A DNA stretch of 64,000 nt, from NCBI GenBank assembly GCA_964516805.1, contig CAZEXI010000005.1, forward strand, positions 1,556-65,555, in the 5' to 3' direction. The stretch comes from an uncultured Thermoplasmata archaeon (GTDB lineage Archaea; Thermoplasmatota; Thermoplasmata; Halarchaeoplasmatales; Halarchaeoplasmataceae). Below are positions 9,389-25,006 of the stretch, one piece after another. The translations under genes were made by a program, and so were the position numbers. Position 1 is the first letter of the stretch, and each line of letters begins with the position of its first letter. The notes under the pieces are model-generated. The model was not told where the DNA came from and made no database searches. It worked only from the letters and a program-made list of their open reading frames with translations.

Positions 9389-11683
9389 ATGAAAGCTCTA
9401 TTGGTTGACGATGAGCATGATTTTCTGGAGCAGACAAAAATTTTCATAGAGAATAATCTAGAATCTCTGAAATTAGACACTGTTTCAAACGTCCAGGATG
9501 CTTTGCAAAAGCTAGAAAATCATGAGTATTCTGCGATTATCTCAGACTATCAGATGGGTGAAATCAACGGTTTAGAATTTTTAAAGATCATAAGAGAAGA
9601 AAAAAACAGCAATATACCTTTTATCATATTTACCGGTAGAGGAAGAGAAGATGTAGCAATAGAAGCCCTCAATCTAGGGGCGAACAGATACATCCACAAA
9701 GGCGGAGATCCAAGATCACAGTATGGTGTTTTGTCCAATGCTCTCATCAATGAAATTGACTCTTACAAGAAAGATAAAAGATTGAAAAATTCTAGATCAA
9801 AAAAGGAATCTATCGATGAGGTCGATCAGTCAGAAAAAGGGCCAAAGATCTCCGAACAAAACCGTAAAACTCTACAAAAAAGATACAAAGCTCTTTATGA
9901 AAGGTCCTTGGATGGAATATACTTATTCGATTTTGAAGGGGATTTTATAGACGCTAATCCTAAAGCATTAGAAATGATAGGTTATTCAAAGGAAGAATTG
10001 AGTTCTTTAAATTATAAAGACATATTTACTGACGAATCCATCAAAAAAATAGACAAGACTACTAAAAATATTATAGAAAACGGAGCACAAGACGATCCAA
10101 CAGAGCTAAAACTAATAAGAAAAGATGGAAACGAGATATGGGTAGAAACAAAAACACATGTTCTGTATAAGGATGATGAACCTTACGCATTCCAAGGGAT
10201 AGCTAGAGAGATAACTGAAAGGAAAAAGATAGAAAAAAAGATGAAGAAAAAAGAGAGGGCTATCCAAAATTCTCTTAATGGGATAACTATTGCGGACCTA
10301 AACGGTGATGTAACTTATGTAAACGACTCGTTGGTAAACATGTGGGGATTCGAAAACCAGGATGAAATACTTGGGAGAGATACACTAGAATTTTTCGAAA
10401 ATAAAGAAAAAACTCAAGAAGCTATTAACAAACTCCTTGAAAATGGAAGATGGAAGGGTGAATTGAGAGGAAAAAGAAAAGATGGATCGATCATAGATGT
10501 TTTCTTGTCGGCAAATCTCATTTATGACGATGAAGGAAATACTACGGATATTTTGGCTTCTATAATAGATATATCAGAAAATAAGTCCACAAATAGAAAA
10601 ATAGAAAAACTTCACGATATCACTCAAAAATTGGAACGTTGTGAAGAAGAAGACGAGGTCTATAATCTGGCTATTGAAGCTGCAGAAAGAATACTAGATT
10701 TTGAGATGTGTTCGATCGATTCTGTTGAAGGTAACAATTTTGTGGTCAAGGCTACTTCATCAAATGTTGATGCGGACGGTTCAAAAAACACTTCATTGGA
10801 TGAAGGCATAGCTGGGAGAACGTATAAAGAAGGCGATTCATTCATTGTAGATGATCTTAATAAAAATGAAAACGCCGAACCAGTAAAAGACAATTATCGT
10901 TCAGCATTGTCTGTTCCGATAGGTGATTTTGGTGTGTTTCAGGCAGTTTCAACAGGTAAAAAACAGTTTGACGAACAAGATGTCAACATGGCTGAGTTGC
11001 TGATGGACCATGTAGTAGAGACATTGAAACGGATCAAATCAAGTAAAAAACAAGATTTCTTACACTCCTTATTGAGGCATGATGTGAAAAATAAAACCCA
11101 GATCGTTGAAGGTTACTTACAACTATTGAAGGACTCAGAGCTCAATGACCTACAGTCTGATTTTACTGATAAAGCTCTTAAAGCAACAAGAGAAGGACAA
11201 TCTATACTTAAAAAGGTCAAAACACTTAGAGAAATAAAGGAAGAGGATGTCGAAGAGAAGAACATAAAAGTACCTTTAAAGAAAGCTATCAGGTCCAATA
11301 AAGAGCTGGTTGAAAAATCGAAAATAAGTATAAACTGGGATGAGAAAGACTGCATAGTAAAAGGTGGTGCACTGCTAGAAGAGCTTTTCTTCAATATCAT
11401 AAATAACGCTGTTAATCACTCAAATTGTGAAAATATAGATATCGCTGTAGAAAAAACAAAAAATGATTGTATTATACAGATCAAAGATGATGGTGTGGGT
11501 ATTCCAGAGGAAGAAAGGGATGCTATTTTTAAGAAGGGCTACAAAAAAGGAGATAAAGCAGGTACTGGACTTGGTCTGCATCTTGTCAAAACTATCGTAG
11601 AAAGTTACGATGGTAATATCGAGGTAAAAGATTCGAAATTAGGTGGTGCTAGATTCGATATTTATCTAAAAAAAGCTCAATAA
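9389..11683 (+). CDS. hybrid sensor histidine kinase: REC-PAS-PAS-GAF-HisKA-HATPase
   Basis: 764 aa. Receiver has SDYQMGEINGL and FTGRGRED. Two PAS blocks and a GAF with GVFQAVS are present. H-box LLRHDVKNK; G-boxes DDGVGI and GTGLGL. Confidence 0.9.
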   Translation: MKALLVDDEHDFLEQTKIFIENNLESLKLDTVSNVQDALQKLENHEYSAIISDYQMGEINGLEFLKIIREEKNSNIPFIIFTGRGREDVAIEALNLGANRYIHKGGDPRSQYGVLSNALINEIDSYKKDKRLKNSRSKKESIDEVDQSEKGPKISEQNRKTLQKRYKALYERSLDGIYLFDFEGDFIDANPKALEMIGYSKEELSSLNYKDIFTDESIKKIDKTTKNIIENGAQDDPTELKLIRKDGNEIWVETKTHVLYKDDEPYAFQGIAREITERKKIEKKMKKKERAIQNSLNGITIADLNGDVTYVNDSLVNMWGFENQDEILGRDTLEFFENKEKTQEAINKLLENGRWKGELRGKRKDGSIIDVFLSANLIYDDEGNTTDILASIIDISENKSTNRKIEKLHDITQKLERCEEEDEVYNLAIEAAERILDFEMCSIDSVEGNNFVVKATSSNVDADGSKNTSLDEGIAGRTYKEGDSFIVDDLNKNENAEPVKDNYRSALSVPIGDFGVFQAVSTGKKQFDEQDVNMAELLMDHVVETLKRIKSSKKQDFLHSLLRHDVKNKTQIVEGYLQLLKDSELNDLQSDFTDKALKATREGQSILKKVKTLREIKEEDVEEKNIKVPLKKAIRSNKELVEKSKISINWDEKDCIVKGGALLEELFFNIINNAVNHSNCENIDIAVEKTKNDCIIQIKDDGVGIPEEERDAIFKKGYKKGDKAGTGLGLHLVKTIVESYDGNIEVKDSKLGGARFDIYLKKAQ

Positions 11684-12102
11684 TCTAAATAATATTCAAT
11701 AACGCACTCTTTTATATCTGGTCTTACTTCCTGAACAATCTGGATGAATCTCTCTTCCTGTGTGCTGGCCATCACGCCGTATAGGTCGAAAAAGACTTCA
11801 TCATCCTGTATTTTTTTTACCATCAACCTTTTATGTGCCTCTGTTAACTTGTACTTTCCACCTTTATCATGTTCTTCTTTTAGATGTTTTTCAATCCTTG
11901 ATAGAACTTCCATGTAAAAACCGACTTTCCTAGGTCTGTCTGGACCAACATTCCTTACTAAACCACACTTCTCACAGTACGGATGTGGTGCTAATGTAAG
12001 CGATTCTTTTCTACTGAGCATTGGAAGCCAATCATGATCATGAGACTCATGTAGACATTCCGGCTCTTTTTCTTCTACAGCATCAGCATCTGAATCCTGC
12101 AT
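11677..12102 (-). CDS. hypothetical Cys/His-containing cytoplasmic protein
   Basis: 141-aa ORF divergent from metF-like. It contains ECLHESHDHD and HPYCEKCG motifs. I recognised no family. Confidence 0.45.
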   Translation of the reverse strand: MQDSDADAVEEKEPECLHESHDHDWLPMLSRKESLTLAPHPYCEKCGLVRNVGPDRPRKVGFYMEVLSRIEKHLKEEHDKGGKYKLTEAHKRLMVKKIQDDEVFFDLYGVMASTQEERFIQIVQEVRPDIKECVIEYYLDY

Positions 12103-12210: not shown

Positions 12211-13164
12211 ATGAAAGAATTTATGGAGAGGTTGAAGAAAGACTCGTTCCCCATCACTTATGAAGTCCCATCCCCACGGGGAGGGAATGTGGAAGATTAT
12301 ATCGATCATATAACAGAATACGAGTTTAAAGACCATATCGCTGGTTTCAATGTGTGTAATAATCCTGTGGGGCTGGTGAGGATAGACCCCGGTCCATATG
12401 CGGGAAAAATAAAAGAAAAGATAGGAATAGATACCATAGCTCATCTAACATGTAGAGATTCTACTATAGGTGGACTTCAAAGATGGCTTTTAGGAGCTCA
12501 ATCATTGGGCATAAAAAATATATTGGCGATGACTGGTGACTACGCAGTCGGTGATTATCCTGCTGAGGAAAAAGTAGATCATATCAACTCTCTAGAACTT
12601 ATCACTGGTATCAAAGATTATCTAAACCAGGGTAAATTGATGCCTGAGCTGTCAGCACGACCCCATAAAACCAGAAATAGGTACCTCAGCGAAATAGACG
12701 AAATAGAAGTTCCAACCGACTTTATAGTCGGTGGAGTTATACTACCTGGTAGGAAAAAAGAAGCTGGTTACGCTGCCAGGAAGGTTGATGCAGGTGCTGA
12801 TTTTTTCCAAACCCAGATAACATATGACCATGAAGAGATGCTTGACTTTTTAGAAAAATTAGAAGACCGTATAGAAAGATATCCTCCAATACTTATAGGA
12901 ACTACCCCTTTCCAGTCTCCAAAACAGATGATGGAACTCTCAGATACGATACCTCAGGTAAATATTCCTGATTACGTTCAAAAGCGGTTATCTAAGGCAG
13001 ATGACTTCAAATCAGAATCAATCGAATACACGATTGAGTTCTACGAAAAGATAAAAGATGGAGCAGAAGAAAGGGGTATCAATTGCAAATTGGGGGCGCA
13101 TATAATACCCATAAGGTATGAAGGTAGGGTGAATGAGATAATAAGGAGGATAAGTGAGATATGA
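12211..13164 (+). CDS. metF: methylenetetrahydrofolate/-methanopterin reductase-like protein (MetF/MTHFR family)
   Basis: 317 aa with the MTHFR-type TIM-barrel signature including IAHLTCRD and ILAMTGD. The stop overlaps the next start (ATGA). Confidence 0.8.
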   Translation: MKEFMERLKKDSFPITYEVPSPRGGNVEDYIDHITEYEFKDHIAGFNVCNNPVGLVRIDPGPYAGKIKEKIGIDTIAHLTCRDSTIGGLQRWLLGAQSLGIKNILAMTGDYAVGDYPAEEKVDHINSLELITGIKDYLNQGKLMPELSARPHKTRNRYLSEIDEIEVPTDFIVGGVILPGRKKEAGYAARKVDAGADFFQTQITYDHEEMLDFLEKLEDRIERYPPILIGTTPFQSPKQMMELSDTIPQVNIPDYVQKRLSKADDFKSESIEYTIEFYEKIKDGAEERGINCKLGAHIIPIRYEGRVNEIIRRISEI

Positions 13165-13733
13165 GTGATCTTTATCCATGGGGAGGAAAATACAGAACTG
13201 GCAGTGCAGAATCCCCTGTAGCTGTTGTTACTTTAAACACAGATTTTGATTTTCCAGAAGATAAAGTCGCTATTTGGGGAAAGATGAAAACAGAAAACCT
13301 TGGTATAGAAAAAGTGATAGCTAACGTGATCTCAAATCCAAATATCCGATTTCTTATTATCTGTGGTGAAGAGATAAGAGGGCATAACTCAGGTAATTCT
13401 TTGAAAGCGGTAATAAAGAATGGAATCGACGATAATGGTAAAATAATCGAAGCACCAGGTGCCGTTCCATATATAGAGAACATATCAAAAGAAGCTGTTG
13501 AAAGATTTCGGGATCAAATTTCTGTTATAGATAAAATAGATATTACTGAAAAAGAAAAAATATTAGATGTTATAAACTCAAAACTGGAAGAAAATCTAGG
13601 TCGTTTTGATGACCCCTTTATAGCAATAAGAATAAAAAACGAAGAAAAGTCAAAACTAGAAGCTGATCTAGCTCTGCATGCTTCTTTAAAGATCAGTCCG
13701 TGGGGGAAAATTTCTCCAGCTGAAAATGAATAA
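13161..13733 (+). CDS. mtrA: soluble MtrA-like corrinoid-binding protein
   Basis: 190 aa. YPWGGKY..SPVAVVTL and NPNIRFLIICGEEIRGHNSG match the MtrA cobamide-binding domain. There is no hydrophobic C-terminal anchor. Confidence 0.8.
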   Translation: MSDLYPWGGKYRTGSAESPVAVVTLNTDFDFPEDKVAIWGKMKTENLGIEKVIANVISNPNIRFLIICGEEIRGHNSGNSLKAVIKNGIDDNGKIIEAPGAVPYIENISKEAVERFRDQISVIDKIDITEKEKILDVINSKLEENLGRFDDPFIAIRIKNEEKSKLEADLALHASLKISPWGKISPAENE

Positions 13734-13788
13734 ATCCATTAGTATATAAGGAAAACTGTTATATTCTCCTAAGCATAACGTTCCGTAC

Positions 13789-16700
13789 ATGGATTTGATC
13801 CTGATAGACGATAATCCAGATCTTATCGAGCAGGCAAGTATTTACCTCCAGAGGGAAGATGAAAGGTTCAATATACATACCACCACATCACCTATCAACG
13901 CATTCAATAAAATTAAAGATCAAGACTTTGATGTGGTCGTCTCTGATTACCAGATGCCAGAGATGACTGGTTTAGATCTATTAAAAAAAATGAGAGACAA
14001 CGGCTATAATACTCCTTTCATCATATTTACAGGAAGAGGACGAGAGGAAGTTGCTATAAAAGCTCTAAATCTAGGAGCGGATCGGTATATCCAGAAAGGG
14101 TGTGATATTAAGACTCAATACAGTCTTTTAGCCAATAATATTAAACAAGTAGTCGATCTAGAAGAATCTAAACAAAGAATCAAAGAAAAGAAAAATAAAA
14201 TAAAGGCACTTCATAAAATAGGTTTCCAGTTAAACAAAACAGACAACGAAGAAGATATACTTGATTTGACTATAAAGGCTGCAAGCGATATACTAGAATT
14301 CAATGTATGTGATATCGATTTTTTAAAAGACGGGGAATTCATTCCAAAAAGAACTACAAGAGAAGATGGGATACCTGTCGAAAGCTATCCTTTCAAGGGT
14401 ACCTTGGCTAAGACCTACAAAACAAAAGAATCCTTCATTACTAACGATATCACTAATTCTGATACTGCAGATCCAATAGATAAAAATTACAAATCTGGTA
14501 TCAGTGTACCTATAGGTGGCTATGGAGTTTTTCAAGCTATATCATTCCAAAAAGACTACTTTGATGAAGAAGATCTTGAACTATCTGAAATTTTGATTTC
14601 ACACGTAAATCTAGCATTGAATAAAGTTAAATTTGATAAAAAAAGACAAAAAGAAAAAGATAAGATTGAAAAATTACACAAGATCACTTCAAAAATGGAA
14701 AATGTAGATGAGATGAAGGATGTATTCGATTTAGCGATAGAAGCAGTCGAAAATATTCTTGATTTCAATGTGTGCTCATTCAGCTTAGCTGATGATGATG
14801 AATTTGTAATAACCGCTAAAAGTTCAGCAGAGTATCTGCCGATAGGTTACAGATTTCCTATAAATACTGGTATCGCTGGAAAGTGTTATAAAACCGGGTC
14901 TAAAATCGTAACAAAGGATGTTGATAGAGATAATAGAGCACAACCTAATAAGGACTCTTACAAATCAGGTATCACTTTACCTATTTTAAATATCGGTATA
15001 TTTCAGATAATTTTCGATGAAAAAGAAGCTTTTGACGATCACGATGTAAGAGTAGTCGAATTACTGATAAATCATGTGAATGAAGCATTGAAAAGAATAA
15101 GATCTACTAGTTCTTTAAAAGAGTCAGAAGCAACATACAAAACAATTTACGAAAACACATTGAAACTCTCCAAAGAAAAAGATTTTGATAAGGTCATCAA
15201 AACTATCGCTGATAATGCCAAAAAGCTATTGAAAGCAAACGATTCAATAATATATTTATTAAATACCAATAAAAATAGTATAGAACCCATATATTCGAAC
15301 AACCCAGACTATAAAGAAGAAATAATGAACTATGACATTTCTTTAGGGGAAGGATTGACAGGAAATGTAGTAAAGAATGGAGAAGCTAAGATCATTAACT
15401 ACGATGATGAAAAAAACGGAATTTTAGTAATTCCAGGTACAGAAAAGAAGAAAGACCATGAACATGAATCCGTTATATCAACTCCTCTTTTTATAGATGA
15501 CAAGGTCCAAGGAGCTATTACAGTTACAAAATTTAAAGAAAAATTCAGTGAAGAGGACATTATAAAACTAAATACATTCGCTAGACAGGCAGAGATCGCC
15601 ATCAAAAGAGCTGAAGAGCTCGATAATCTTAAAAGATCTAAAAGGAAACTAAAAGAGAATAAGAATAAGATAGAAGAACTACACTACGCAGTAAATAGGA
15701 TAGAAAAAAGTAAAAATGAACAGGAAATTTATCACTTAGCTATCAAAATTGCGGAAAACATATTAGATTTTGATATAGCTGAATTCATGGTAAAAAGTAA
15801 AGATGAATTAGTTGTTAAAGCTAAATCCTATTCAGATCCTACTGAAGATGACAGCATAGGTATTGAAGAGGGCATAGCTGGAAGAACGTACAAACATGGA
15901 TCTTCCTATATAATAGGAGATATCCCGAACTATTTTAAATCAGAACCGACAAATGAAGATTATAAATCTGGCATATCCGTTCCTGTAGGGAAATATGGGG
16001 TCTTTCAAGCTATATCAACAGAGAAAGATAACTTTGATCAAAATGACCTAGATTTAGCTGAGATACTCATTTCTCACGTGACCGAGAAACTGAAAAATAT
16101 ATCTAATGAAAAAAAGATCAAAAGAGAATCAGAAAAAATAGAAAGACTACATAAATTCGCAGCAAACTTAGAAAGCTGCTTAGAAAAAGAAAGGGTCTTT
16201 GAATTGATAACTGAAGCTGGTGAAAATATATTGGATTTAGATATCTGTAAAACGTATATCTCTAAAGACGATGATTTATTAATCAAAAAACACTCATCCA
16301 TGTATACACAATCTTCCAGTTCTCTGGCTAAAAAATTAGCTGATAAAACCTACGATGAAGATAAAATCTTAACAGAAAATGACATTGAAAATATTGAAAG
16401 TACAGAGAATTTCAAATCAATAATAAGTATGCCGATAGCTTCTTATGGTGTGTTCCAAGCTATTTCAAAAGATAAAAAAGCTTTTGATCAGGAAGACACG
16501 AAACTATCTAAACTTTTGATAGACCACGCTGTAGAAGCCCTTAATAGAATACAGAGTGAAAGTAGAGAGGAATTCTTATTGACTCTTTTAAGACATGATC
16601 TTAAAAATAAAAATAACATAACTAGAGGCTATATATCAATAATACAGGATATGGACATTGATGATAAACAGAAAACATTCTTAGAAAAAGCATCAACATC

Positions 16701-17199
16701 ATGCGAAGAAAGTATGTCACTCATTAAAAAAGTGGGTATGCTTAGAAAGATCGATAAGGAAAAAGAAAAAAAGGAGATCAATATCCATCATTCCTTAAAT
16801 CAAGCCTTAGATAATCTATATAAGATCGCTGAAGAAAAAAATATCAAAATAGACTATGAGAAATGTTCAAACAAGGTAAGTGCTGGGCCTCTTTTGAAAG
16901 AAGCTTTCAGTAATATAATAGAAAATTGTTTAGAACATTCTGATGGTTCACATATAAAAATCTACTCTAATGACTATGATAGATCTATCGAGCTGATAAT
17001 TGAAGATGATGGTAAAGGCATATCAGACGATAAACTCAATAAAGTATTTAAGAGAGGTTTTAAAGGAAGAAATTCAGGTGGTCTGGGTATAGGGATGTAC
17101 ATCGTAAAAAGTATAATTGATAACTATGATGGTAATATAAACCTAGGAAAATCTGAACTGGGTGGAGCTAGGTTTGAAATAACATTAAATAAAACATAA
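13789..17199 (+). CDS. hybrid sensor histidine kinase: REC-(GAF)x5-HisKA-HATPase
   Basis: 1136 aa with an N-terminal receiver (SDYQMPEMTGL) and five GAF modules. H-box LLRHDLKNK; DDGKGI and GLGIGM boxes. Confidence 0.9.
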   Translation: MDLILIDDNPDLIEQASIYLQREDERFNIHTTTSPINAFNKIKDQDFDVVVSDYQMPEMTGLDLLKKMRDNGYNTPFIIFTGRGREEVAIKALNLGADRYIQKGCDIKTQYSLLANNIKQVVDLEESKQRIKEKKNKIKALHKIGFQLNKTDNEEDILDLTIKAASDILEFNVCDIDFLKDGEFIPKRTTREDGIPVESYPFKGTLAKTYKTKESFITNDITNSDTADPIDKNYKSGISVPIGGYGVFQAISFQKDYFDEEDLELSEILISHVNLALNKVKFDKKRQKEKDKIEKLHKITSKMENVDEMKDVFDLAIEAVENILDFNVCSFSLADDDEFVITAKSSAEYLPIGYRFPINTGIAGKCYKTGSKIVTKDVDRDNRAQPNKDSYKSGITLPILNIGIFQIIFDEKEAFDDHDVRVVELLINHVNEALKRIRSTSSLKESEATYKTIYENTLKLSKEKDFDKVIKTIADNAKKLLKANDSIIYLLNTNKNSIEPIYSNNPDYKEEIMNYDISLGEGLTGNVVKNGEAKIINYDDEKNGILVIPGTEKKKDHEHESVISTPLFIDDKVQGAITVTKFKEKFSEEDIIKLNTFARQAEIAIKRAEELDNLKRSKRKLKENKNKIEELHYAVNRIEKSKNEQEIYHLAIKIAENILDFDIAEFMVKSKDELVVKAKSYSDPTEDDSIGIEEGIAGRTYKHGSSYIIGDIPNYFKSEPTNEDYKSGISVPVGKYGVFQAISTEKDNFDQNDLDLAEILISHVTEKLKNISNEKKIKRESEKIERLHKFAANLESCLEKERVFELITEAGENILDLDICKTYISKDDDLLIKKHSSMYTQSSSSLAKKLADKTYDEDKILTENDIENIESTENFKSIISMPIASYGVFQAISKDKKAFDQEDTKLSKLLIDHAVEALNRIQSESREEFLLTLLRHDLKNKNNITRGYISIIQDMDIDDKQKTFLEKASTSCEESMSLIKKVGMLRKIDKEKEKKEINIHHSLNQALDNLYKIAEEKNIKIDYEKCSNKVSAGPLLKEAFSNIIENCLEHSDGSHIKIYSNDYDRSIELIIEDDGKGISDDKLNKVFKRGFKGRNSGGLGIGMYIVKSIIDNYDGNINLGKSELGGARFEITLNKT
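14194..16554 (+). repeat. tandem array of five GAF-encoding modules (four of one subtype, one divergent) inside the kinase gene
   Basis: A signature recurs at about aa 136, 291, 626 and 782: K-I-x-x-LH ... ENILDF(N/D)(V/I)C ... YKSGIS(V)P(I/V)G.YGVFQAIS ... L(A/S)E(I/L)LI.HV. Module 3 (about aa 448-607) is a different GAF type. Confidence 0.75.
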
Positions 17200-17272
17200 C
17201 AATCTATTTTGAAATTGATCAATCGAAATAATAATTTACAACATCGTACATTTATAATGGGAGGAATAGAAA

Positions 17273-18187
17273 ATGTTCAGTTATACCAAAGAACAAAAAA
17301 CTTACGAGCTTGGAGATATAAAAGTTGGCGGATTACCTGGACAATTTCCTACACTGATGGTCGGTACTGTTTTTTACAAAGGTCAGTTCAAAAATCAAAA
17401 AAGATCAAAGAGTAAAGTAAGTGCCCTTATCCAAAAACAAAAAGAATTCTCAGAAAAAACATCTATTCCCTCATTGGTGGATTTTTTTATATACGAGAAA
17501 GACGAAGTCGAATGGAAGATCGATTTTGCTATCGAAAATACGGACGGTTACTTTTCATTGGATATACCAGAATCGGAAGTTAGGATAAAGGCATTAGAAT
17601 ATCTAGATGAACAGGACGCCTTATCAAGAGTTGTGTACAATAGTTTTAATCTCGGTGTAACCGATAAAGAACTCGAAGTGCTTAAAGAAAAAACACCCTC
17701 TGCAGCAATAATACTGGCTTATAACCCTCAAAACAACAACACCCAGGGTCGTTTAGATATACTTACCGATGGTGGTAAATTATTAGAAAAGGGACTGCTG
17801 GATATGGCTAAAGAAGTTGGGATAGAAAAAACGCTATTGGACACTGCAGCGACACCTTTCGGCGAGGGTGCATGTGAAACTATAAGAGCTATACCAGTTT
17901 TTAAAAGTGAATTAGGTCTTCCTGTTGGATGTGCACTACACAACACCGTTGAATCATGGCAGTGGTTGGAAGAATATAGTGATAGAAAAAAGATTTTAGA
18001 TTCGATAGACACCGGGATTGATGGTTTACCTGTTCTTCTGGGAGCTGACTTCATTTATTATGGTCCAATTGAAAATTCTCGATATTCGTTCCCATACATA
18101 GCAATGGTCAATAAACTGATAGCTGAAGGAGCTGAAGATTATTTTGGACAGGATATAGATGAAGAACATCCATATTATAAATTATAA
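17273..18187 (+). CDS. mtrH: MtrH-like pterin:corrinoid methyltransferase
   Basis: 304 aa. The N-terminus MFSYTKEQKTYELGDIKVGGLPGQFPTLMVGTVFY closely follows the MtrH consensus. GGAGG lies 8 nt upstream of the ATG. Confidence 0.8.
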   Translation: MFSYTKEQKTYELGDIKVGGLPGQFPTLMVGTVFYKGQFKNQKRSKSKVSALIQKQKEFSEKTSIPSLVDFFIYEKDEVEWKIDFAIENTDGYFSLDIPESEVRIKALEYLDEQDALSRVVYNSFNLGVTDKELEVLKEKTPSAAIILAYNPQNNNTQGRLDILTDGGKLLEKGLLDMAKEVGIEKTLLDTAATPFGEGACETIRAIPVFKSELGLPVGCALHNTVESWQWLEEYSDRKKILDSIDTGIDGLPVLLGADFIYYGPIENSRYSFPYIAMVNKLIAEGAEDYFGQDIDEEHPYYKL

Positions 18188-18195
18188 TAGTCGTT

Positions 18196-18396
18196 TCATT
18201 CACCACTCAGTCTTTTAGCTAGTTCGTGTAGGTCTGGTCCTTCCTCTTCGATTTTTCTAATGACCAGCTTTCCATCTTCTAACTCAAGAGTTAATTTTTG
18301 TCCAGGTCTTATTCCAATCTTTTTCTGAAATTTAGATGGGATGGAAACCTTACCTTGTTCGTCTAGTCTTACTTTTTCTTTCATTATATAAATCAA
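18196..18396 (-). CDS. AbrB/SpoVT (MazE/VapB-like) DNA-binding protein
   Basis: 66 aa with the swapped-hairpin motif GKVSIPSKFQKKIGIRPGQKLTLELEDGKLVIRKI. No adjacent toxin ORF. Confidence 0.65.
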   Translation of the reverse strand: MIYIMKEKVRLDEQGKVSIPSKFQKKIGIRPGQKLTLELEDGKLVIRKIEEEGPDLHELAKRLSGE

Positions 18397-18492
18397 GATA
18401 ATAATATTATTTAAATTTGAGGAAAAGTGTTTGTGACATCCTCCTCTCCCTGAAGGAAGAGGTCTTAAATAGTTAGGTTAGATAATAATACG

Positions 18493-21129
18493 TCATACTT
18501 TCATCAGGTGGATATCGAATCTCGCTCCCCCTAGGCTTGATTCTTTTACATCTATCTGCCCACCATAATTTTCTACAATCTCTTTAGATAGATACATACC
18601 GAGACCTGTTCCAGCATTTTCGCCTGCACTGAAACTTTTTTTGAAGATTTTATTTTTATATCTATCATCTACACCTTTACCGTTATCTTCTATCTTTACT
18701 ATGATCTCCTCCGTTTCATCTTTCACATCTATTTCTATTTTATCAGCATCTGAGTGAATTATGGAGTTCTCTATAATATTGCCAAAGAGGTCCTCTAAAA
18801 GTACACCTCCCATAACGTCTAAACCACTTTTTTCAAATTTGATATCTATTCCCCTATCTATGCTGGTAGGCATAAACTCGCTTAAAACAGTATCAAGTAT
18901 TGAATCCAAATTCATTGGCTTTATTCCTTCGTCACCGATCTTACTTAAGGTACGTACCTTTTCTATGAGATTCATCTCTTTTTTAGTAGCATCTATAGCT
19001 TTCTTGATTATTTCCATATCACCAGGGTCATTTTCAAGAAGTTGAAGGTATCCATGAACGATATTAACTTTATTTTTCAGATCGTGTCTGAGTAAAGTGT
19101 GCAGGAACTTTTGTTTATCCTCCAGTTCCTTTCTTTCCGTAATATCCATTATCAAACCTTCAACTTCATCGATTTCAGCTTCGTTGGAATAGTCAGTTCT
19201 CCCCTGTTCCCATACCCATTTCTCATCACCACTCTTATCTATTATCTTATATATTATTTTAAAAGGCTTCTTTTCTTGAATCGCTCTGTTTACGCTATTC
19301 CATACATACTCTCTATATTCTGGATGTATTAATTCACCATAAGAGATCACTTCATTATCAATCAATTCCTCGGACTTATATCCTGTTAGTTTAAAGCTAC
19401 CCTCACTGACAAGCTCCATAGTCCAATTTCTATCATTTCTACACTTGTAAGCCATACCGGGAATATTTTTCAAAAGAACTTCCAGTCTTTCATTTAGATC
19501 CCGTAATTCATCCTCCTGTTTTTTTCTCTCTGATATGTCCTTAACACTAGCAAAATAAGTACTGTAATTACCTGATGTATCAGTTATTGCTTTTGGGCTT
19601 ATAATTGCGGGAAATTCAGTACTGTCCTTTCTTTTGAGATAAATTTCATGATCCTGAAACTTACCATCAGTTATCTGACTCAAGATATCTTGTATTTTCT
19701 CCGTTTTATTTTCAGGCCAGTACGGCATAGGGATTTTTTTATTTGTCAATTCAGATCTAGAAAAACCAGTCATCCTGCAGAATGCATCGTTGATATAAGT
19801 TTGAACTCCTTCAGAATCGAATACGATGAATCCATCAAGCATGGAATCGATTATCTTTTCTGACCTTTTTTTACCCTCCTCTATTTTCTCTTTCATTTCT
19901 ATACTGTAAAGAGCAAATGATATATCTCCTGCTACTTCCTCCAGTAAATTTATTTCATCTTCATCAACTGAAATATTTTTAGGTAATGCTACAATCAAAA
20001 CACCATACAAATTTTTCTCATATTCTAAACGTACAGCTAGGTTTTTATCTCTTTCACATCCTTGATAAGATATGCAATCATCACATATTTCTTTTTCAAA
20101 TATTCTGACACCACTTTCATCAATTCCTTTATGTACACACCTAGGAAGACTTTCTTTCTCAATCTCTTTTAAAAAATCAATACTTTTTTTATCTAAAGTA
20201 GAATAAGATAATATATCTAGTTCATCATTTTCATCAAATATAACTATCCAGCTGAATTTATACCCTCTGTTCTCTACTAAAATATCACAGATCTTGTCTA
20301 TTAAACGTTCTTTATCTGTCTCTCTTATTATTGTCTGATTTACATTTCTAATGCTGTCTAAAACAAGGTTGAGATGTAATATCCTATCCTCTGCTTCCTT
20401 TCTTTCAGTTATATCTTGAGCTATCGCTGATGCACCTATGACTGATCCTTCCTTGTTCTCTATAGGTGAAACCGTCAAAGAAATATGTATTTCTGTACCC
20501 TCTTTTGTCTTTCTTACAGTTTCGTAGGGCTTTACCTTCTTTCCTTTTCTAACTGTATCTAGGATATCATCTATCTCTTTCTCTGATTCCTCTGGAGTGA
20601 TTATCGAGATATGCTTCCCGATAACTTCATCCTCAGTATACCCATATATCTGTTCAGCACCTTTATTCCATGATTTGATGTACCCATCTAAGTCCTTGCT
20701 TATGATCGCATTCTGAGAAGATTCTACTATCGAGGCTAGATTAAATCTTGCCTTTTCTCCACGATATAATCTTACTTCCTGATCTATGACATCTGCTAGC
20801 AATTCGAACTGAACCCGAGGATTTCCACCTTTCTGAATATAATTATTTGCACCCAGGTTCAAAGCCTTAATTGCGACTTCTTCTCTTCCCCTACCTGTGA
20901 ACATTATAAAAGGTATATTTATCCCCCGATCTCTAATTTCTCTAAGAAAATCTAAACCATCCATACCTGACATTTGATAATCAGATATTATAGAATCATA
21001 ATCATTTTTATTTATCTCCATCAAACCATGTTCTGCAGAAGAAACTGTATTTATATTCATTTTCACATTTAAATCTTCAAGAAAAATCTTAGCTTGTTCT
21101 AAGATCCCAGGTTCATCATCAACGAACAA
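18493..21129 (-). CDS. hybrid sensor histidine kinase: REC-PAS-GAF-PAS-PAS-HisKA-HATPase
   Basis: 878 aa with a receiver (SDYQMSGMDGL), PAS blocks, H-box LLRHDLKNK, DNGKGV and GTGLGM. It opens at TTG; the paralogue-expected ATG position reads ACG (21136..21138). Confidence 0.85.
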   Translation of the reverse strand: MFVDDEPGILEQAKIFLEDLNVKMNINTVSSAEHGLMEINKNDYDSIISDYQMSGMDGLDFLREIRDRGINIPFIMFTGRGREEVAIKALNLGANNYIQKGGNPRVQFELLADVIDQEVRLYRGEKARFNLASIVESSQNAIISKDLDGYIKSWNKGAEQIYGYTEDEVIGKHISIITPEESEKEIDDILDTVRKGKKVKPYETVRKTKEGTEIHISLTVSPIENKEGSVIGASAIAQDITERKEAEDRILHLNLVLDSIRNVNQTIIRETDKERLIDKICDILVENRGYKFSWIVIFDENDELDILSYSTLDKKSIDFLKEIEKESLPRCVHKGIDESGVRIFEKEICDDCISYQGCERDKNLAVRLEYEKNLYGVLIVALPKNISVDEDEINLLEEVAGDISFALYSIEMKEKIEEGKKRSEKIIDSMLDGFIVFDSEGVQTYINDAFCRMTGFSRSELTNKKIPMPYWPENKTEKIQDILSQITDGKFQDHEIYLKRKDSTEFPAIISPKAITDTSGNYSTYFASVKDISERKKQEDELRDLNERLEVLLKNIPGMAYKCRNDRNWTMELVSEGSFKLTGYKSEELIDNEVISYGELIHPEYREYVWNSVNRAIQEKKPFKIIYKIIDKSGDEKWVWEQGRTDYSNEAEIDEVEGLIMDITERKELEDKQKFLHTLLRHDLKNKVNIVHGYLQLLENDPGDMEIIKKAIDATKKEMNLIEKVRTLSKIGDEGIKPMNLDSILDTVLSEFMPTSIDRGIDIKFEKSGLDVMGGVLLEDLFGNIIENSIIHSDADKIEIDVKDETEEIIVKIEDNGKGVDDRYKNKIFKKSFSAGENAGTGLGMYLSKEIVENYGGQIDVKESSLGGARFDIHLMKV

Positions 21130-21328
21130 AACTTCCGTATTATCGCCAAGAAGAATACCTTTACAATAGTAATTAAACCTTCTCTTTTATGCTTGAGAAA
21201 TATGAAACACAGCATATTTTTTTCAATGTATAGTAAAAAAGTTGAAAAACTGCAGAACCGTGATCTCATCGAGATAGATATTCAAAACAAACTCATCCAC
21301 AGGGAGATTTAAGAATTTACGAATAACA

Positions 21329-23068
21329 CTAAGCCTTTTTTAAATATACGTCAAATCTCGCTCCACCAAATTCCGAATCTTTTACTAATATATCGCCTTC
21401 CAAACTATTTGCTATTTTTCTGGCAATGTACATACCAAGACCAGTACCTGCAAATCTTCCTTTTCTAGAATTTTTCTCGAAAATTATTTTCTTTAATTCA
21501 TCATCTATGCCGATACCATCATCTTCAAAGATAATTATAACTTCATCATCTTCGATTTTAGATCTTATTCTAATCTTAGAACCTTGAGAATGCTTTATGG
21601 AATTTATGATTATGTTCAAAAATAGATCTTCCAATAAACTACCACCCATCACTTTAACATCATCCATATCCCAATCTATATCAATCCCTTCATCATTTGC
21701 TTTTGAATCGATCTCAGATACGATCGAATCAATGATGGGCTTCACTCTGATCTCTTCTTTTTTTATTTCTGGTATCTTCATCATGGTATCAACTTTATTC
21801 ACTAGGTCAACTGATTTTTCAAGGGCTTTACTGGATTTAGATATCAACTTTTTCTGTTGGTCATTCAAATCAGTATCTTTTATCAAGTCCAAATATCCTC
21901 TCATCACCTGAGCTTTATTTTTTATGTCATGGGTTAACATTGAATGCAAAAAATCCTCTCTCTCCTCTGCCTCGACCCTTTCAGTTATATCGCACGCTGT
22001 ACCAAATAACTTTTTTCGATCATCAATAGTCACGATATCCGTTTCAATTTTTATATAACGAACATTGCCATCCTTGTCTTTTACTTTTATACTAAAGGGC
22101 TCTATCTCTTTTTCAGTTCTAAATTTTTCTAACCCTTCTTCTAATAACTCTGAATTTTCAATTGATAATATATCTGATAAATTCTTGAAATCTCTTCCAA
22201 TTAACTCTTTTTTGGGTAAACCCATCGTTTTGCAGAATGTTTTACTGATATCTTCCAATATCCCGTTTTTGTTTACGATGAAGCCAACTTCAGGCACCTT
22301 CTCGAAAAATATCTTAAACCTATCTCTACTCCTTAATTCAGTTAGCTCCTCTACGAAATTGATGACAAATGTCCTTCCTTCGTCTCTCAGTTTTGTAACT
22401 TTTATTTTAACGTCCACATCTGTCATATCACTCCTGCTGTATGTTGAATACAAATAAATATGCTCATCGGTTTCCATCCTGTTCCAATAATACCCTTCTG
22501 TCGATTCTGCATTTAATATCAGGTCTAAATCGGTCATATTCATCAGAAATAGGTCCTCTTCAGAATAGCCTAGTAGATCAAAGATGAAATTATTAGCATA
22601 TAATATATTACCATATTCATCATTTATGATTATGCCTTCTGGTGCGTTCTTTAATAATAAATCTACTTTTCCTTCCAGATCTTTTCTTGCCTTTTTTCGA
22701 TTTATCACTCTTTCGATTGATTTACCGAGCTCTTCATACTGGGATTTTGGATCACCAGTCTTGGTCATATAAAAATCAGCACCCTCATTCAGAGCTTCCA
22801 TTGCTATACTCTCTCCGCCTCTTCCCGTTAAAATCACAAACGGTATGTCTTCTCCCTGATTCCTTAACTTTTCAAGAAAATCTAAACCATCCATATTCGG
22901 CATGAGATAATCAGAAACAACTGCATCATACCTTTTCATCCTGATCTTATCGATGGCATCTCTAGCGGAGTTGGATGTTTCAACTCTCATACCATCTTTT
23001 AGATCCTCTAAAAATAGCTTAGCCTGCTCAAGGACAGGTCTCTCATCATCTACGAATAAGACGTCCAT
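21329..23068 (-). CDS. hybrid sensor histidine kinase: REC-PAS-PAS-HisKA-HATPase
   Basis: 579 aa with a receiver (SDYLMPNMDGL), two PAS blocks, H-box MLTHDIKNK, DDGIGI and GTGLGM. A GGGGAG SD-like element lies upstream of the ATG. Confidence 0.9.
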   Translation of the reverse strand: MDVLFVDDERPVLEQAKLFLEDLKDGMRVETSNSARDAIDKIRMKRYDAVVSDYLMPNMDGLDFLEKLRNQGEDIPFVILTGRGGESIAMEALNEGADFYMTKTGDPKSQYEELGKSIERVINRKKARKDLEGKVDLLLKNAPEGIIINDEYGNILYANNFIFDLLGYSEEDLFLMNMTDLDLILNAESTEGYYWNRMETDEHIYLYSTYSRSDMTDVDVKIKVTKLRDEGRTFVINFVEELTELRSRDRFKIFFEKVPEVGFIVNKNGILEDISKTFCKTMGLPKKELIGRDFKNLSDILSIENSELLEEGLEKFRTEKEIEPFSIKVKDKDGNVRYIKIETDIVTIDDRKKLFGTACDITERVEAEEREDFLHSMLTHDIKNKAQVMRGYLDLIKDTDLNDQQKKLISKSSKALEKSVDLVNKVDTMMKIPEIKKEEIRVKPIIDSIVSEIDSKANDEGIDIDWDMDDVKVMGGSLLEDLFLNIIINSIKHSQGSKIRIRSKIEDDEVIIIFEDDGIGIDDELKKIIFEKNSRKGRFAGTGLGMYIARKIANSLEGDILVKDSEFGGARFDVYLKKA

Positions 23069-23197
23069 TTAATCAGTCACTCCCCAATTCCCCCAAATGT
23101 GAATATATAATTAGGAAATTATACCTTATAATCTTATCGGTAAAAATAAGCGATCACCCATTATCTTTTTAAGATATCAAGTACATATATTAAGGAT
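23069..23197. promoter_or_regulatory. divergent promoter region between the kinase gene and metE-like gene
   Basis: 129-nt AT-rich spacer with several TATA-like boxes (aatatataatt at 23102; tttttaagatat about 26 nt upstream of the 23198 ATG, compatible with a leaderless or short-leader mRNA). Confidence 0.3.
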
Positions 23198-24094
23198 ATG
23201 AATCTAAACAAAGAACTTCTCACAACAGTAGTAGGTAGTTTTCCTTCATCACCATCTAAAACGTCACTGTCAAAATCATACTTCACAGATACTGATCCAT
23301 ATTTTGAAAGTTTAAAGAATGCAGTATTAACCCAGGTCGATACTGGTCTAGAACTTATTTCAGATGGCCAAACAAGAGGAGGGATGGTTGAGATATTTGC
23401 AAGGGGGTTGAAAGGATACAGGATCAAAGATAAGATAGAGATCATTTCAGATATCAAATTCTTAAGCCCTATAACATTAGAAGATCAAAAATCAGCAAAA
23501 AATATTATTCCAGATGATATAGGCTTGAAAGGAATAATCACCGGTCCATTTACGATGGTAAAAAGTGCTGAAAACAAACATTATAGATCTGAGAAAGATG
23601 CTGTTCTAGATACTGCTGAGGCACTGAAAAACGAAGCAGAAAAATTAGCAGAGGTATGTGATGTTGTTCAGATAGACGAACCATTTCTTTCGACTGAATT
23701 CCCAGATTACGCTAAAGAGTGTGTTGAGACTGTTTTAGACATAGATGCAACTACTGCCTTACATATTTGTGGTAATGTTAATCCATTCGTAGAAGAAGTA
23801 ATCGAGATAGATGTAGATATACTGGACCATGAATTCGCTGATAATCCTTCTCTTTACGAAGTATACGAAGATACCGATTTTAACCAAAGGATGTCCGTAG
23901 GTGTAGTTACTACAAATCCCAGGGTTGAAAGTATAGATGAAATCAAAGAAAGAATACAAAGAGCGTACAATACTTTTGGATCTAGATGTATGATCGATCC
24001 AGACTGCGGCTTAAAGGATATAGGTTTTGAGAGTGCTAAAAGTAAATTAGAGAACATGGTTCAAGCACGGGATCACTTTTTAAAGAAAATATAA
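23198..24094 (+). CDS. metE: core (folate-domain-less) methionine synthase, MetE C-terminal-domain family
   Basis: 298 aa with TTVVGSFP, LISDGQTRGG and Zn-ligand contexts HICG and DPDCGL, typical of short archaeal MetE/Meth_synt_2 proteins. Confidence 0.75.
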   Translation: MNLNKELLTTVVGSFPSSPSKTSLSKSYFTDTDPYFESLKNAVLTQVDTGLELISDGQTRGGMVEIFARGLKGYRIKDKIEIISDIKFLSPITLEDQKSAKNIIPDDIGLKGIITGPFTMVKSAENKHYRSEKDAVLDTAEALKNEAEKLAEVCDVVQIDEPFLSTEFPDYAKECVETVLDIDATTALHICGNVNPFVEEVIEIDVDILDHEFADNPSLYEVYEDTDFNQRMSVGVVTTNPRVESIDEIKERIQRAYNTFGSRCMIDPDCGLKDIGFESAKSKLENMVQARDHFLKKI

Positions 24095-24133
24095 AAAAAT
24101 AGATTCATATACCACTGAAAAAATAGTATACTT

Positions 24134-24631
24134 ATGCTTAGGATAAGGGAATATTTCAAAAACAATGATTTGCAGAAGAGGGTGGCAAAGTTCCTTCTTG
24201 AGAGTGGGTTATCTATCGAAAAGGGTGAGATATATTGTAACGGGACTTGGATCTCTAAAAATAGTGTTGCAGAAAATTTAGATGTAGATGAATGGGTGGT
24301 GGAAGATACTATAGACCTTATCGAAGGACATATAGATCTAAAAGAGATCTTCAGAAACCTGAGATCCACTGCTTATTTTGGTAAGATAGCTGAACAGATC
24401 GATGCTGGTGTTATCATGATTACTCCTAAAGATCCGCATGGTATCGGAATTCTAGCGGGAATAACCAGAATAATAGCTGATTATGATATAAGCATAAGGC
24501 AGTGTTTGACCGAAGATTCAGAACTGAAGGAAGACCCAAAATTGATAGTAATAACTGAGGACACTATACCTATCGAAGCTCTGGAAAAGATCAGAGAAGT
24601 GGAAGGCATCGAAAATGTAAGTCTATACTAA
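24134..24631 (+). CDS. ACT-domain regulator of amino-acid metabolism (COG2150-like)
   Basis: 165 aa. The C-terminal ACT-like block is GIGILAGITRIIADYDISIRQC, preceded by an N-terminal HTH-like segment. Confidence 0.6.
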   Translation: MLRIREYFKNNDLQKRVAKFLLESGLSIEKGEIYCNGTWISKNSVAENLDVDEWVVEDTIDLIEGHIDLKEIFRNLRSTAYFGKIAEQIDAGVIMITPKDPHGIGILAGITRIIADYDISIRQCLTEDSELKEDPKLIVITEDTIPIEALEKIREVEGIENVSLY

Positions 24632-24679
24632 AAGCACGATAATTTTTTATCTTTAAGACACATAGATAAGTGATTTCAG

Positions 24680-25006
24680 ATGAAAGAGGTCGAAGAGATC
24701 GAGGCTGAAGAGAGTAAAGTCAAATTAGACCAGAAAGGGTTTTTTGTGATCTACCTAGATGAAAATAAAATCATTGCAGAGCATTATGAGAACGTCAATA
24801 AAGGCGGTAAACTAGAGGTAGAAACTGGGAGTATTGATTTTATCATCAAAGGAGAAAGTGCAAAGGCAATATGTGATACAATTATTAGAAAAGATCTTGT
24901 TTCTGATCCAGGTCATATAGCTTATCTGGCTAGAGAACTGGAGAAGGCAGAGATAGCTCTTAAAAACGGATTAGATTTTGAGCAGAGTGAAGAACTAGAA
25001 CTGTGA
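24680..25006 (+). CDS. DUF4346-like small protein
   Basis: 108 aa. The pattern LDQKGFFVI ... HIAYLARELEKAEIAL..G..F.Q resembles DUF4346, a domain elsewhere fused to MtrA-like domains. This is from memory and was not searched. Confidence 0.45.
   Translation: MKEVEEIEAEESKVKLDQKGFFVIYLDENKIIAEHYENVNKGGKLEVETGSIDFIIKGESAKAICDTIIRKDLVSDPGHIAYLARELEKAEIALKNGLDFEQSEELEL

Follow-up and report, generated by a model that had tools for sequence, protein, structure and literature searches.

A 64,000-nucleotide stretch of DNA from an uncultured archaeon (positions 1,556 to 65,555 of contig CAZEXI010000005.1, assembly GCA_964516805.1; referred to here, in its full length, as the window) contains a set of genes that, judging from sequence and gene neighbourhood, probably specify a soluble, multi-component, cobamide-dependent methionine synthase operating independently of the membrane Mtr complex. 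The five genes concerned are the following:

12211–13164, plus strand: MetF-like methylene-tetrahydropterin reductase (PF02219, 103 bits; full-length match, 4–285 of 287)
13161–13733, plus strand: soluble MtrA-like cobamide carrier, 190 amino acids (aa) (PF04208, 176 bits)
17273–18187, plus strand: MtrH-like methyl-pterin:cob(I)amide methyltransferase (PF02007, 242 bits)
23198–24094, plus strand: MesA-like core methionine synthase (MetE-core), 298 aa (PF01717, 146 bits, residues 8–290)
24680–25006, plus strand: DUF4346 protein (PF14251, 83 bits)

A first-pass annotation, made from the DNA letters, had placed these genes and a presumed ACT-domain regulator in a soluble methyl relay. Open reading frames (ORFs) were found at all six positions, the mtrH-like gene following the mtrA-like gene on the same strand as described, and the family assignments of all six genes hold in Pfam and NCBIfam. 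The six proteins of this region, from the MetF-like to the DUF4346 protein, are all predicted to be soluble.

The MtrA-like protein has as its best PDB match 5laa (157 bits), an anchor-less MtrA homologue of M. fervidus with cobalamin bound. Its His75, in the sequence EEIRGH, aligns with His84 of M. marburgensis MtrA, and its Glu45 corresponds to Glu54; in the latter protein, His84 is the cobalt ligand and Glu54 its hydrogen-bond partner (PMC4915002). The segment G100-AVPYIEN represents the GAIPF/Y-x-EN meander motif. Both Glu45 and His75 are invariant in the operon homologues (29/29), and the meander motif is also kept. These alignments bear out the cobamide signature and candidate ligand His of the first-pass annotation. 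The tail of the protein is hydrophilic, with a maximal 19-residue hydropathy of 0.37 over the last 60 residues, confirming that the hydrophobic C-terminal anchor of membrane MtrA is missing. The protein scores under the equivalog cutoff of TIGR01111 (170 vs 249 bits), and its gene lies outside any mtrEDCBAFGH operon: the flanking genes are metF and either a kinase gene or mtrH, and the relatives leave no room for mtrB, mtrF or mtrG.

MtrH methylates the corrinoid of MtrA from methyl-tetrahydromethanopterin (methyl-H4MPT). The MtrH-like protein of the window aligns over residues 1–304 to positions 1–313 of the 314 in TIGR01114, at 262.8 bits vs an equivalog cutoff of 271.4. Its PDB matches include methanogen MtrH (9qtp, 184 bits) and MtgA of D. 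hafniense (6sj8, 144 bits). Like the mtrA-like gene, it has no mtr operon context.

The 298-aa protein consists of the catalytic barrel only, the lone Meth_synt_1 match being sub-threshold (23.8 vs 27 bits) and falling on that same barrel. Its best NCBIfam model is NF002119, at a borderline 255 bits vs a cutoff of 258, and this model is also the best one (237–298 bits) for every operon architecture described below; full-length MetE models give 82–85 bits only. The zinc contexts HICG and DPDCGL, singled out in the first-pass annotation, are confirmed: the predicted ligands H189 and C191 (HICG), E212 (DHEF) and C270 (DPDCG) are all present and align with the corresponding motifs of C. albicans full-length MetE. 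The predicted homocysteine site has S14, Q58 and D160. In the methanogen core synthase MesA and in MesC this site is Ser/Gln/Asp, whereas full-length MetE has a Glu (Glu484) at the Gln position (PMC7857596). Among 91 homologues, S14, Q58, D160, H189 and C270 are present in all, and C191 in 90. Glu212, the third zinc ligand, is retained in the clade of the window protein and in methanogen-type MesA (D-H/C/F-E-F); clades C and D, described below, and the stand-alone clade E have Ala or Ser instead. Methanogen MesA uses methylcobalamin in vitro, with a Km of >20 mM, and does not use methyl-pterins (PMC7857596). We therefore regard the window protein as a putative methyl-cob(III)amide:homocysteine methyltransferase.

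In a neighbour-joining tree, the proteins of MtrA-type operons, including that of the window, form one clade, and a second clade is made up of the methanogen-type references, the MtaC-type and metF-mesA-mtrH operons and the majority of the stand-alone genes. NF002119 members scoring 379–412 bits include two, P0187 and P0195, that occur in metE-thyA-mch contexts typical of H4MPT-using methanogens; the two methanogen-type genes whose context we viewed (404 and 412 bits) have thyA and mch as neighbours and otherwise stand alone. For comparison, a catalytic half of split MetE (P0223) gives 403 bits with NF003317 and 277–286 bits with full-length MetE models. The family is compact, since an exhaustive search of representatives returned only 31 clusters at E ≤ 1e-30.

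Among NCBIfam models, the YitJ-type bifunctional one gives the best match to the MetF-like protein (138 bits), through its methylenetetrahydrofolate reductase (MTHFR) half. In the MTGD motif of the protein, the GD aligns with that of LRGD in yeast MTHFR (6fnu), and we take the Asp to be the MTHFR catalytic residue. The protein may serve to supply the methyl-pterin donor.

The relatives identified in reference genomes are metagenome-assembled genomes (MAGs) of Thermoplasmata, including Candidatus Saliniplasma (order Ca. Halarchaeoplasmatales), and an identical copy of the MtrA-like protein is found on contigs of GCA_905333325.1 and GCA_905333765.1. The host is thus a halophilic Thermoplasmata archaeon of the Ca. 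Halarchaeoplasmatales. It is apparently a non-methanogen, with heterotroph-type genes such as that for urocanase in the window. We scanned a non-overlapping set of ORFs of at least 70 aa with Pfam, a procedure that very small Mtr subunits could escape, and found no MtrB-G, Mcr or Mer in the 64 kb, in line with the first-pass annotation, and no protein with Meth_synt_1 only. The MetE-core protein accordingly appears not to be methanogen-restricted in its hosts, its closest relatives being encoded in Ca. Halarchaeoplasmatales/Thermoplasmata MAGs. Scans of the window for tRNAs and with Rfam gave no match, and hence no cobalamin or S-adenosylmethionine riboswitch. TATA-like archaeal hexamers upstream of metF (−30) and mtrH (−23) were set aside as evidence, being expected by chance at ∼35% G+C.

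We mapped the window proteins onto the relatives' genomes and then onto metagenome loci. In loci L010–L013 and L024–L030, the genes form one tight cluster, metF-mtrA-mtrH-coreMetE-DUF4346 (type A), with a gene for a conserved 141-aa protein divergent from it, although this divergent gene was not detected in L013 and L029–L030. Junctions in these clusters are overlaps or gaps of ≤65 bp, save one 99-bp gap in L013. The 4-bp overlap (ATGA) between the metF stop and the mtrA start, which the first-pass annotation had reported for the window, is indeed present there and in all type A relatives except L013. In L014, L015, L016 and L020, where MetE-core identity is 39–46%, the genes of an mtrA-mtrH-coreMetE(-DUF4346) cluster touch one another and metF is absent; L045, with a MetE-core of 37% identity, has all five genes. 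A corrinoid protein and two methyltransferases (MtrA-like, MtrH-like and MesA-like) are thus encoded together in one operon in the relatives. These data show that the neighbourhood recurs, that the separation of the genes in the window is secondary and that the ancestral state is a compact operon. As a separate observation, the MesA-like gene of L013, the most distant genome relative, lies in two frames (5529–6435; two tblastn segments, two ORFs), reflecting either a frameshift/pseudogene or an assembly error.

To obtain loci by the MetE-core alone, we scanned metagenomes with its motif, which yielded 80 loci at 29–61% identity, and searched the ORFs of these loci with iterated profiles seeded from the window proteins. 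Linkage was counted in the 26 loci flanked on each side by 2.5 kb or more, which reduce to 22 clusters after dereplication at 85%:

mtrH within 3 kb on the same strand: 20/26 loci, 17/22 clusters
mtrH and a corrinoid-protein gene: 17/26 loci, 15/22 clusters
mtrH only: 3/26 loci, 2/22 clusters
none of the tested families: 6/26 loci, 5/22 clusters

MtrA and MtrH genes are rare, numbering a few per genome at most, so chance cannot explain their linkage to the MetE-core gene. We likewise rejected chance co-localisation as its cause on the grounds that the linkage recurs in dozens of independent loci.

The carriers encoded in the 15 dereplicated clusters are of two kinds, nine MtrA-type and six MtaC-type. 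In the latter (type D: L072, L079, L082, L091, L092, L094–L097, L100–L102), the order is MtaC-type corrinoid protein-mesA-mtrH, and the corrinoid gene, with PF02607 and PF02310, overlaps the MetE-core start by 4 bp. NCBIfam similarity of this carrier is best to MtgC, MtaC and the MetH B12 domain, and no mtrA was found within 8 kb. In the type D carriers inspected, GPHDIG replaces the canonical DxHxxG and the His is kept; the MesA-like proteins of these loci are without the Glu zinc ligand, having SFSF or SLAF instead of DHEF. Proteins identical to those of type D carry the public names Ca. Verstraetearchaeota, Methanomethylicia or Methanosuratincola, and the Ca. Verstraetearchaeota are methyl-reducing methanogens reported to be without the Mtr complex (PMC7886697, PMC6421429). 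MtrA is reported to be non-homologous to other B12-binding proteins (Wagner et al., PMC4915002). Given this, it follows that two unrelated carriers fill one slot beside a constant MtrH and MetE-core, a substitution that argues strongly for a methyl relay from pterin to cobalt to homocysteine, which would predict it, and that would be hard to explain otherwise. Of all the results, this one is the most informative. One way to read the overall distribution is that mesA may need no private donor where an Mtr complex is present, and would travel with its own MtrH and carrier where the complex is absent. Also seen were two stand-alone MesA-like genes, in L085 and L093, with a gene for a DIHDLG corrinoid protein ∼1.45 kb off on the opposite strand (L085, 10336–10992, minus strand; L093, 6002–6676, minus strand), a layout that may be another loose variant of carrier association.

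In operons of types A and B, the DUF4346 gene comes directly 3′ of that for MetE-core, and its presence follows the carrier: among dereplicated, fully flanked clusters it accompanies 13/14 of MtrA-type, 0/6 of MtaC-type and 0/2 of metF-mesA-mtrH type. As the first-pass annotation had stated, the domain is elsewhere fused to MtrA-like domains, for the MtrA-like and DUF4346 proteins match adjacent parts (115–272 and 283–368) of the 390-residue NCBIfam model NF002128. A further match of DUF4346 is to the C-terminal end of a dihydropteroate-synthase-like model, and these two matches together place it in fusions with MtrA domains and pterin-binding barrels. An AlphaFold2 (AF2) model (predicted local distance difference test score, pLDDT, 85.7) has three strands and two helices and gave no significant match to the PDB, and we found no functional literature on the domain. 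With one Cys, the protein is unlikely to have an iron-sulfur role. MtaC-type carriers have a cap domain of their own (PF02607) and MtrA has none; because of this difference we speculate that DUF4346 might be a cap, chaperone or docking factor for MtrA-type carriers.

Taken together, these data are consistent with the following series of reactions. The MetF-like enzyme would reduce methylene-tetrahydropterin to methyl-tetrahydropterin, as its family membership suggests. By analogy to the chemistry of methanogen MtrH and MtrA, the MtrH-like TIM barrel would then methylate the cob(I)amide bound, His-on via His75, to the soluble MtrA-like protein. Finally, the zinc site of the MesA-like protein would activate homocysteine and take the methyl group from methyl-cob(III)amide-MtrA to form methionine, a step modelled on the in vitro activity of methanogen MesA. 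DUF4346, more speculatively, would be an accessory specific to MtrA-type carriers. Gene linkage, carrier substitution and residue conservation are the observations behind this relay; from them we infer each of the catalytic steps and which way the methyl group flows. The first-pass annotation had drawn the same route, from the MetF-like enzyme through methyl-pterin, MtrH and the MtrA cobamide to core MetE and methionine, and comparative genomics supports it.

Several observations weigh against this interpretation. The MetF-like protein falls far under the MTHFR equivalog cutoffs (81 vs 294 bits), and the identity of the pterin is ambiguous, MetF being a folate-type family and the MtrH-like protein lying nearer to H4MPT-type MtrH than to the tetrahydrofolate (THF)-type MtgA. 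Kinase genes, in stretches of 3.5 kb and 5 kb, break up the module in the window itself, so co-expression there is uncertain. Type C loci (metF-coreMetE-mtrH; L022 and L047–L053, e.g. L048 7068–9835), whose genes touch or overlap, have no MtrA- or MtaC-type gene within 4–8 kb, so that local encoding of a carrier is not universal and direct transfer is conceivable; their flanks hold FAD-oxidase and CCG/Fe-S genes downstream and a DUF2148 gene upstream. Finally, scanning of representatives and of clustered flanks up to 8 kb gave no recurrent activator of RamA/RACo type and no MetH-type activation domain.

The direction of flow is one point at which a different reading has to be weighed. The MesA-like protein might demethylate methionine or another S-methyl compound, passing the methyl group to the MtrA cobamide and via MtrH to the pterin, with MetF then oxidising it. 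Such a catabolic module would mirror three-component systems like MtgABC, whose MtrH-like enzyme methylates THF; the MtrH-like protein of the window is homologous to MtgA, a methylcorrinoid:THF methyltransferase (167 bits; 6sj8), and MetF could in principle work in either direction. Also in favour of this idea, hypersaline habitats commonly contain methylated osmolytes. Pairs of corrinoid protein and MtrH (CoP-MtrH) in Bathyarchaeia and Verstraetearchaeota have, moreover, been interpreted as methylotrophy (PMC7886697). Thermodynamics speaks for the biosynthetic direction: in Mtr, transfer from methyl-pterin to cobalt and on to a thiolate is exergonic by about −15 kJ/mol per half-reaction (PMC4915002), so demethylation of a thioether onto a pterin would be uphill. 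In addition, the S/Q/D triad for an α-amino acid, present in 91/91 homologues, points to homocysteine or methionine and not to a catabolic methyl donor; the closest characterised relative is a methionine synthase; and the gene is widespread and housekeeping-like in Thermoplasmatota MAGs. A link to methionine is also seen in the genes of methionyl-tRNA-synthetase type (tRNA-synt_1g, anticodon and tRNA_bind domains) found directly after the MesA-like gene in L021 (975–3698) and, in L015 (9865–12051), 1.5 kb downstream of the module. On balance, we consider the catabolic direction improbable. A synthase that dispenses with the corrinoid, in which MtrH takes the place of MetE's folate-binding N-domain and homocysteine receives its methyl group straight from the pterin, would account for the two of 22 clusters (type C) without a corrinoid gene within 4–8 kb and for the fact that MesA is linked to MtrH (17/22 clusters) more broadly than to any single carrier, the carrier then being dispensable or having another role. 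Yet 15 of these 17 MtrH-linked clusters also encode a corrinoid protein, in genes that overlap or abut, and it is hard to see why two non-homologous carriers should occupy one role unless a carrier is needed. The ligand His, moreover, is invariant in the MtrA-type (29/29) and kept in the MtaC-type carriers inspected, and characterised MesA uses methylcobalamin and not methyl-pterins (PMC7857596). Little probability attaches to direct transfer on this evidence.

The remaining two alternatives concern the identity of the MesA-like protein. MtrA and MtrH normally serve the methylation of coenzyme M (CoM), and the MesA-like protein bears weak similarity to methylcobamide:CoM methyltransferases of the MtaA type (E ∼1e-4; 4ay7), raising the idea that it methylates another thiol, either CoM-like or small, and that the module is a soluble analogue of Mtr/MtaA. 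The best model by far is nevertheless the methionine-synthase equivalog NF002119 (255 bits vs 21 for MtaA), the residues that bind the amino and carboxylate groups of homocysteine are invariant, and the Pfam scan of the 64-kb window found no CoM-related or mcr genes; a different thiol acceptor thus appears quite unlikely. The 298-aa protein could instead be the catalytic half of a split MetE whose folate-binding partner is encoded elsewhere, its proximity to mtrA and mtrH being incidental. MesA is indeed ∼38% identical to the catalytic halves of split MetE (PMC7857596), and the window protein gives 174 bits with NF003317. This score is far under the cutoff of 406, however, and full-length models give the window protein 82–85 bits vs 277–286 for P0223. 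At DG(Q/E) the residue of the window protein is also Gln instead of Glu, no Meth_synt_1-only gene was found in the Pfam scan of the window or beside the homologues, and the linkage to mtrH and a carrier is too recurrent for coincidence. We find this last possibility highly implausible. Collectively, the evidence leaves the soluble, cobamide-dependent methionine synthase as the likely function of the module.

Comparison with characterised systems helps to define what is distinctive here. MesA of methanogens (METE_METTM/MTH775) is likewise a ∼300-aa Meth_synt_2 barrel without a folate domain, with an H-C-E-C zinc site, a Ser/Gln/Asp site and NF002119 as its best curated model, and the donor proposed for it is also a corrinoid protein of the MtrA family. 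Unlike the methanogen proteins, that of the window belongs to an apparently non-methanogenic host and to a separate clade, just under the NF002119 cutoff, and its operon type includes a dedicated soluble MtrA with MtrH, MetF and DUF4346, whereas the two methanogen-type genes viewed lie beside thyA and mch. MesB, the core-MetE of Dehalococcoides, is of a distant family (<30% identity; PMC7857596), and differs also in having the corrinoid iron-sulfur protein (CoFeSP) used in the Wood-Ljungdahl pathway as its proposed donor and no MetF or MtrH (PMC7005905).

The division of labour resembles that in MetH, where Co(I) receives its methyl group from a pterin-binding barrel and methyl-Co(III) gives it up to a homocysteine module of the zinc-thiolate kind; the MetH pterin module and MtrH are distantly related (PMC4632066). 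In the window, by contrast, the modules are separate and mostly non-homologous polypeptides: the homocysteine module is of the MetE type and not the MetH/betaine-homocysteine methyltransferase type, the B12 module is of the MtrA type, with a different mode of cobalamin binding and no cap domain (PMC4915002), and there is no S-adenosylmethionine reactivation domain. With the membrane complex MtrA-H, the module shares homologous MtrA (the Glu54/His84 pair and the meander motif) and MtrH, and the first half-reaction is presumably the same. It differs in having neither MtrB-G genes nor an MtrA anchor, and the acceptor would be homocysteine, via a MetE-type protein, instead of CoM at MtrE; no sodium pumping is implied. 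Other soluble MtrA homologues (5laa of M. fervidus, mtxXAH of Methanosarcinales and group IV) are also short and anchor-less and sometimes occur with an MtrH homologue, but are assigned no established function in the papers cited (PMC4915002, PMC12978539, PMC4632066). The partners in the window, MesA-like, DUF4346 and MetF, set it apart and suggest a specific function, and no mtxX-like gene is present. The CoP-MtrH pairs of Ca. Methanomethylicus and Bathyarchaeia similarly place MtrH beside a corrinoid protein, with a metE homologue in Methanomethylicus, and correspond to our type D loci (PMC7886697); their carrier differs from that of the window in being MtaC/MetH-type with its own cap, and they have no MtrA, DUF4346 or MetF.

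Interspersed with and adjoining the five genes in the window are the following:

11677–12102, minus strand: conserved 141-aa protein, divergent from metF; no Pfam or NCBIfam match
13789–17199, plus strand: receiver-GAFx5-histidine kinase, 1136 aa, between mtrA and mtrH (Pfam)
18493–21129 and 21329–23068, minus strand: two receiver-PAS-histidine kinases, between mtrH and MetE-core (Pfam)
24134–24631, plus strand: TrpY-family-like regulator with a weak ACT match (NF053754, 155 bits, cutoff 180; PF01842, 22 bits, cutoff 27)

The 1136-aa kinase gene has the same orientation as mtrA and mtrH, with spacers of only 55 and 73 bp. L007 alone shares it; from L008 and L010–L013, where mtrA and mtrH abut, it is absent, and so it looks like a recent insertion into the operon. 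The two minus-strand kinase genes are also absent from L010–L013, in which the gap from mtrH to MetE-core is 23–57 bp. Including one at 9389–11683 (plus strand), four paralogous hybrid receiver-PAS/GAF-histidine kinase genes are found around and inside the module. Regarding the ACT-domain regulator of the first-pass annotation, the gene is present, whereas its ACT match is sub-threshold (22 vs 27 bits) and the protein is better described as TrpY-family-like. Among all loci, this gene occurs only in the window and L008, so the amino-acid (ACT) control of the relay suggested earlier would be at most a local addition. The three kinase genes and the TrpY/ACT-like gene are lineage-specific insertions and not part of the conserved module.

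Nine type A relative loci, like the window, have the gene for the 141-aa protein divergent from metF. The protein has invariant residues (C16, H18, H40, C43 and C46) that suggest a zinc-finger-like site. An AF2 model (pLDDT 69.9), in which the C-terminal half is a helical bundle, gave no significant fold match in the PDB. A role as regulator or accessory factor is possible, and it is uncertain whether the protein belongs to the system.

Other features of the window include a 62-aa ORF of MazE/AbrB type (PF04014) at 18196–18384 (minus strand), just downstream of mtrH on the opposite strand. Farther away, divergent genes at 45115–48867 (minus strand) and 49032–50894 (plus strand) encode coiled-coil-like proteins of 1250 and 620 aa with combined Glu+Lys contents of 44% and 41%, and these Glu+Lys-rich genes explain the strand skews at 46–48 kb (GC skew −0.54, AT skew −0.45). 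A GvpD-like/KaiC-like P-loop protein is encoded at 56215–57744 (plus strand), downstream of a Roadblock/LC7 gene; other gas-vesicle genes were not seen in the window.

Parts of this picture have been anticipated. According to Deobald et al. 2020 (PMC7005905), Schroeder & Thauer proposed a corrinoid protein as the methyl donor, with the products of MTH124 or MTH1156 (MtrH) as candidates. Price et al. 2021 predicted methyl transfer from MtrA to MesA from phylogenetic profiles and stated that MesA is confined to methanogens (PMC7857596), and Price & Arkin 2024 noted that the two genes (mesA and mtrA) are adjacent in 'a few genomes' (PMC11378808). In a supplementary figure, Loh et al. 2021 showed that CoP-MtrH of Ca. 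Methanomethylicus adjoins a metE homologue and might be anabolic (PMC7886697). The non-methanogen 'group IV' MtrA was defined, without a function, by Wang et al. 2015, and the role of lone MtrH in non-methanogens was called unclear by Berghuis et al. 2019 (PMC6421429). Our literature search, with most subscription journals outside its reach, found no description of a metF-mtrA-mtrH-mesA-DUF4346 module or of carrier substitution as an argument, and nothing on the C1 (one-carbon) metabolism of this halophilic Thermoplasmata order. Hence the idea of the relay is old and fragments of the linkage have been noted already, while the five-gene soluble module in non-methanogens appears to be undescribed.

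What serves as the physiological donor of folate-domain-less core methionine synthases has been asked since the late 1990s, and has so far been addressed by phylogenetic profiles alone. The locus and its relatives define a compact soluble set (MtrH, MtrA, MesA-like, DUF4346 and, in some cases, MetF) open to direct expression, turning a 25-year-old hypothesis into a defined reconstitution, and they give DUF4346 its first functional context. It is possible, though we advance this tentatively, that a modular synthase of MtrH, an interchangeable carrier and a MesA-like protein, with DUF4346 for the capless MtrA, is the main methionine synthase of many Mtr-less archaea, including most Thermoplasmatota and the Verstraetearchaeota. 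If the proposed function is correct, the soluble MtrA and MtrH homologues that non-methanogens carry as 'orphans' would gain a function, and caution is warranted in taking mtrH/corrinoid pairs in MAGs as signs of methylotrophy or vestigial methanogenesis. If, further, the modular synthase is as widespread as tentatively suggested here, lone mtrH/corrinoid pairs, which are in wide use as genomic markers of methylotrophy or 'remnant methanogenesis', would in many cases be anabolic, and the MtrA/MtrH pair of the Mtr complex, which conserves energy, may descend from a biosynthetic methionine-synthase module or have an ancestor in common with one.

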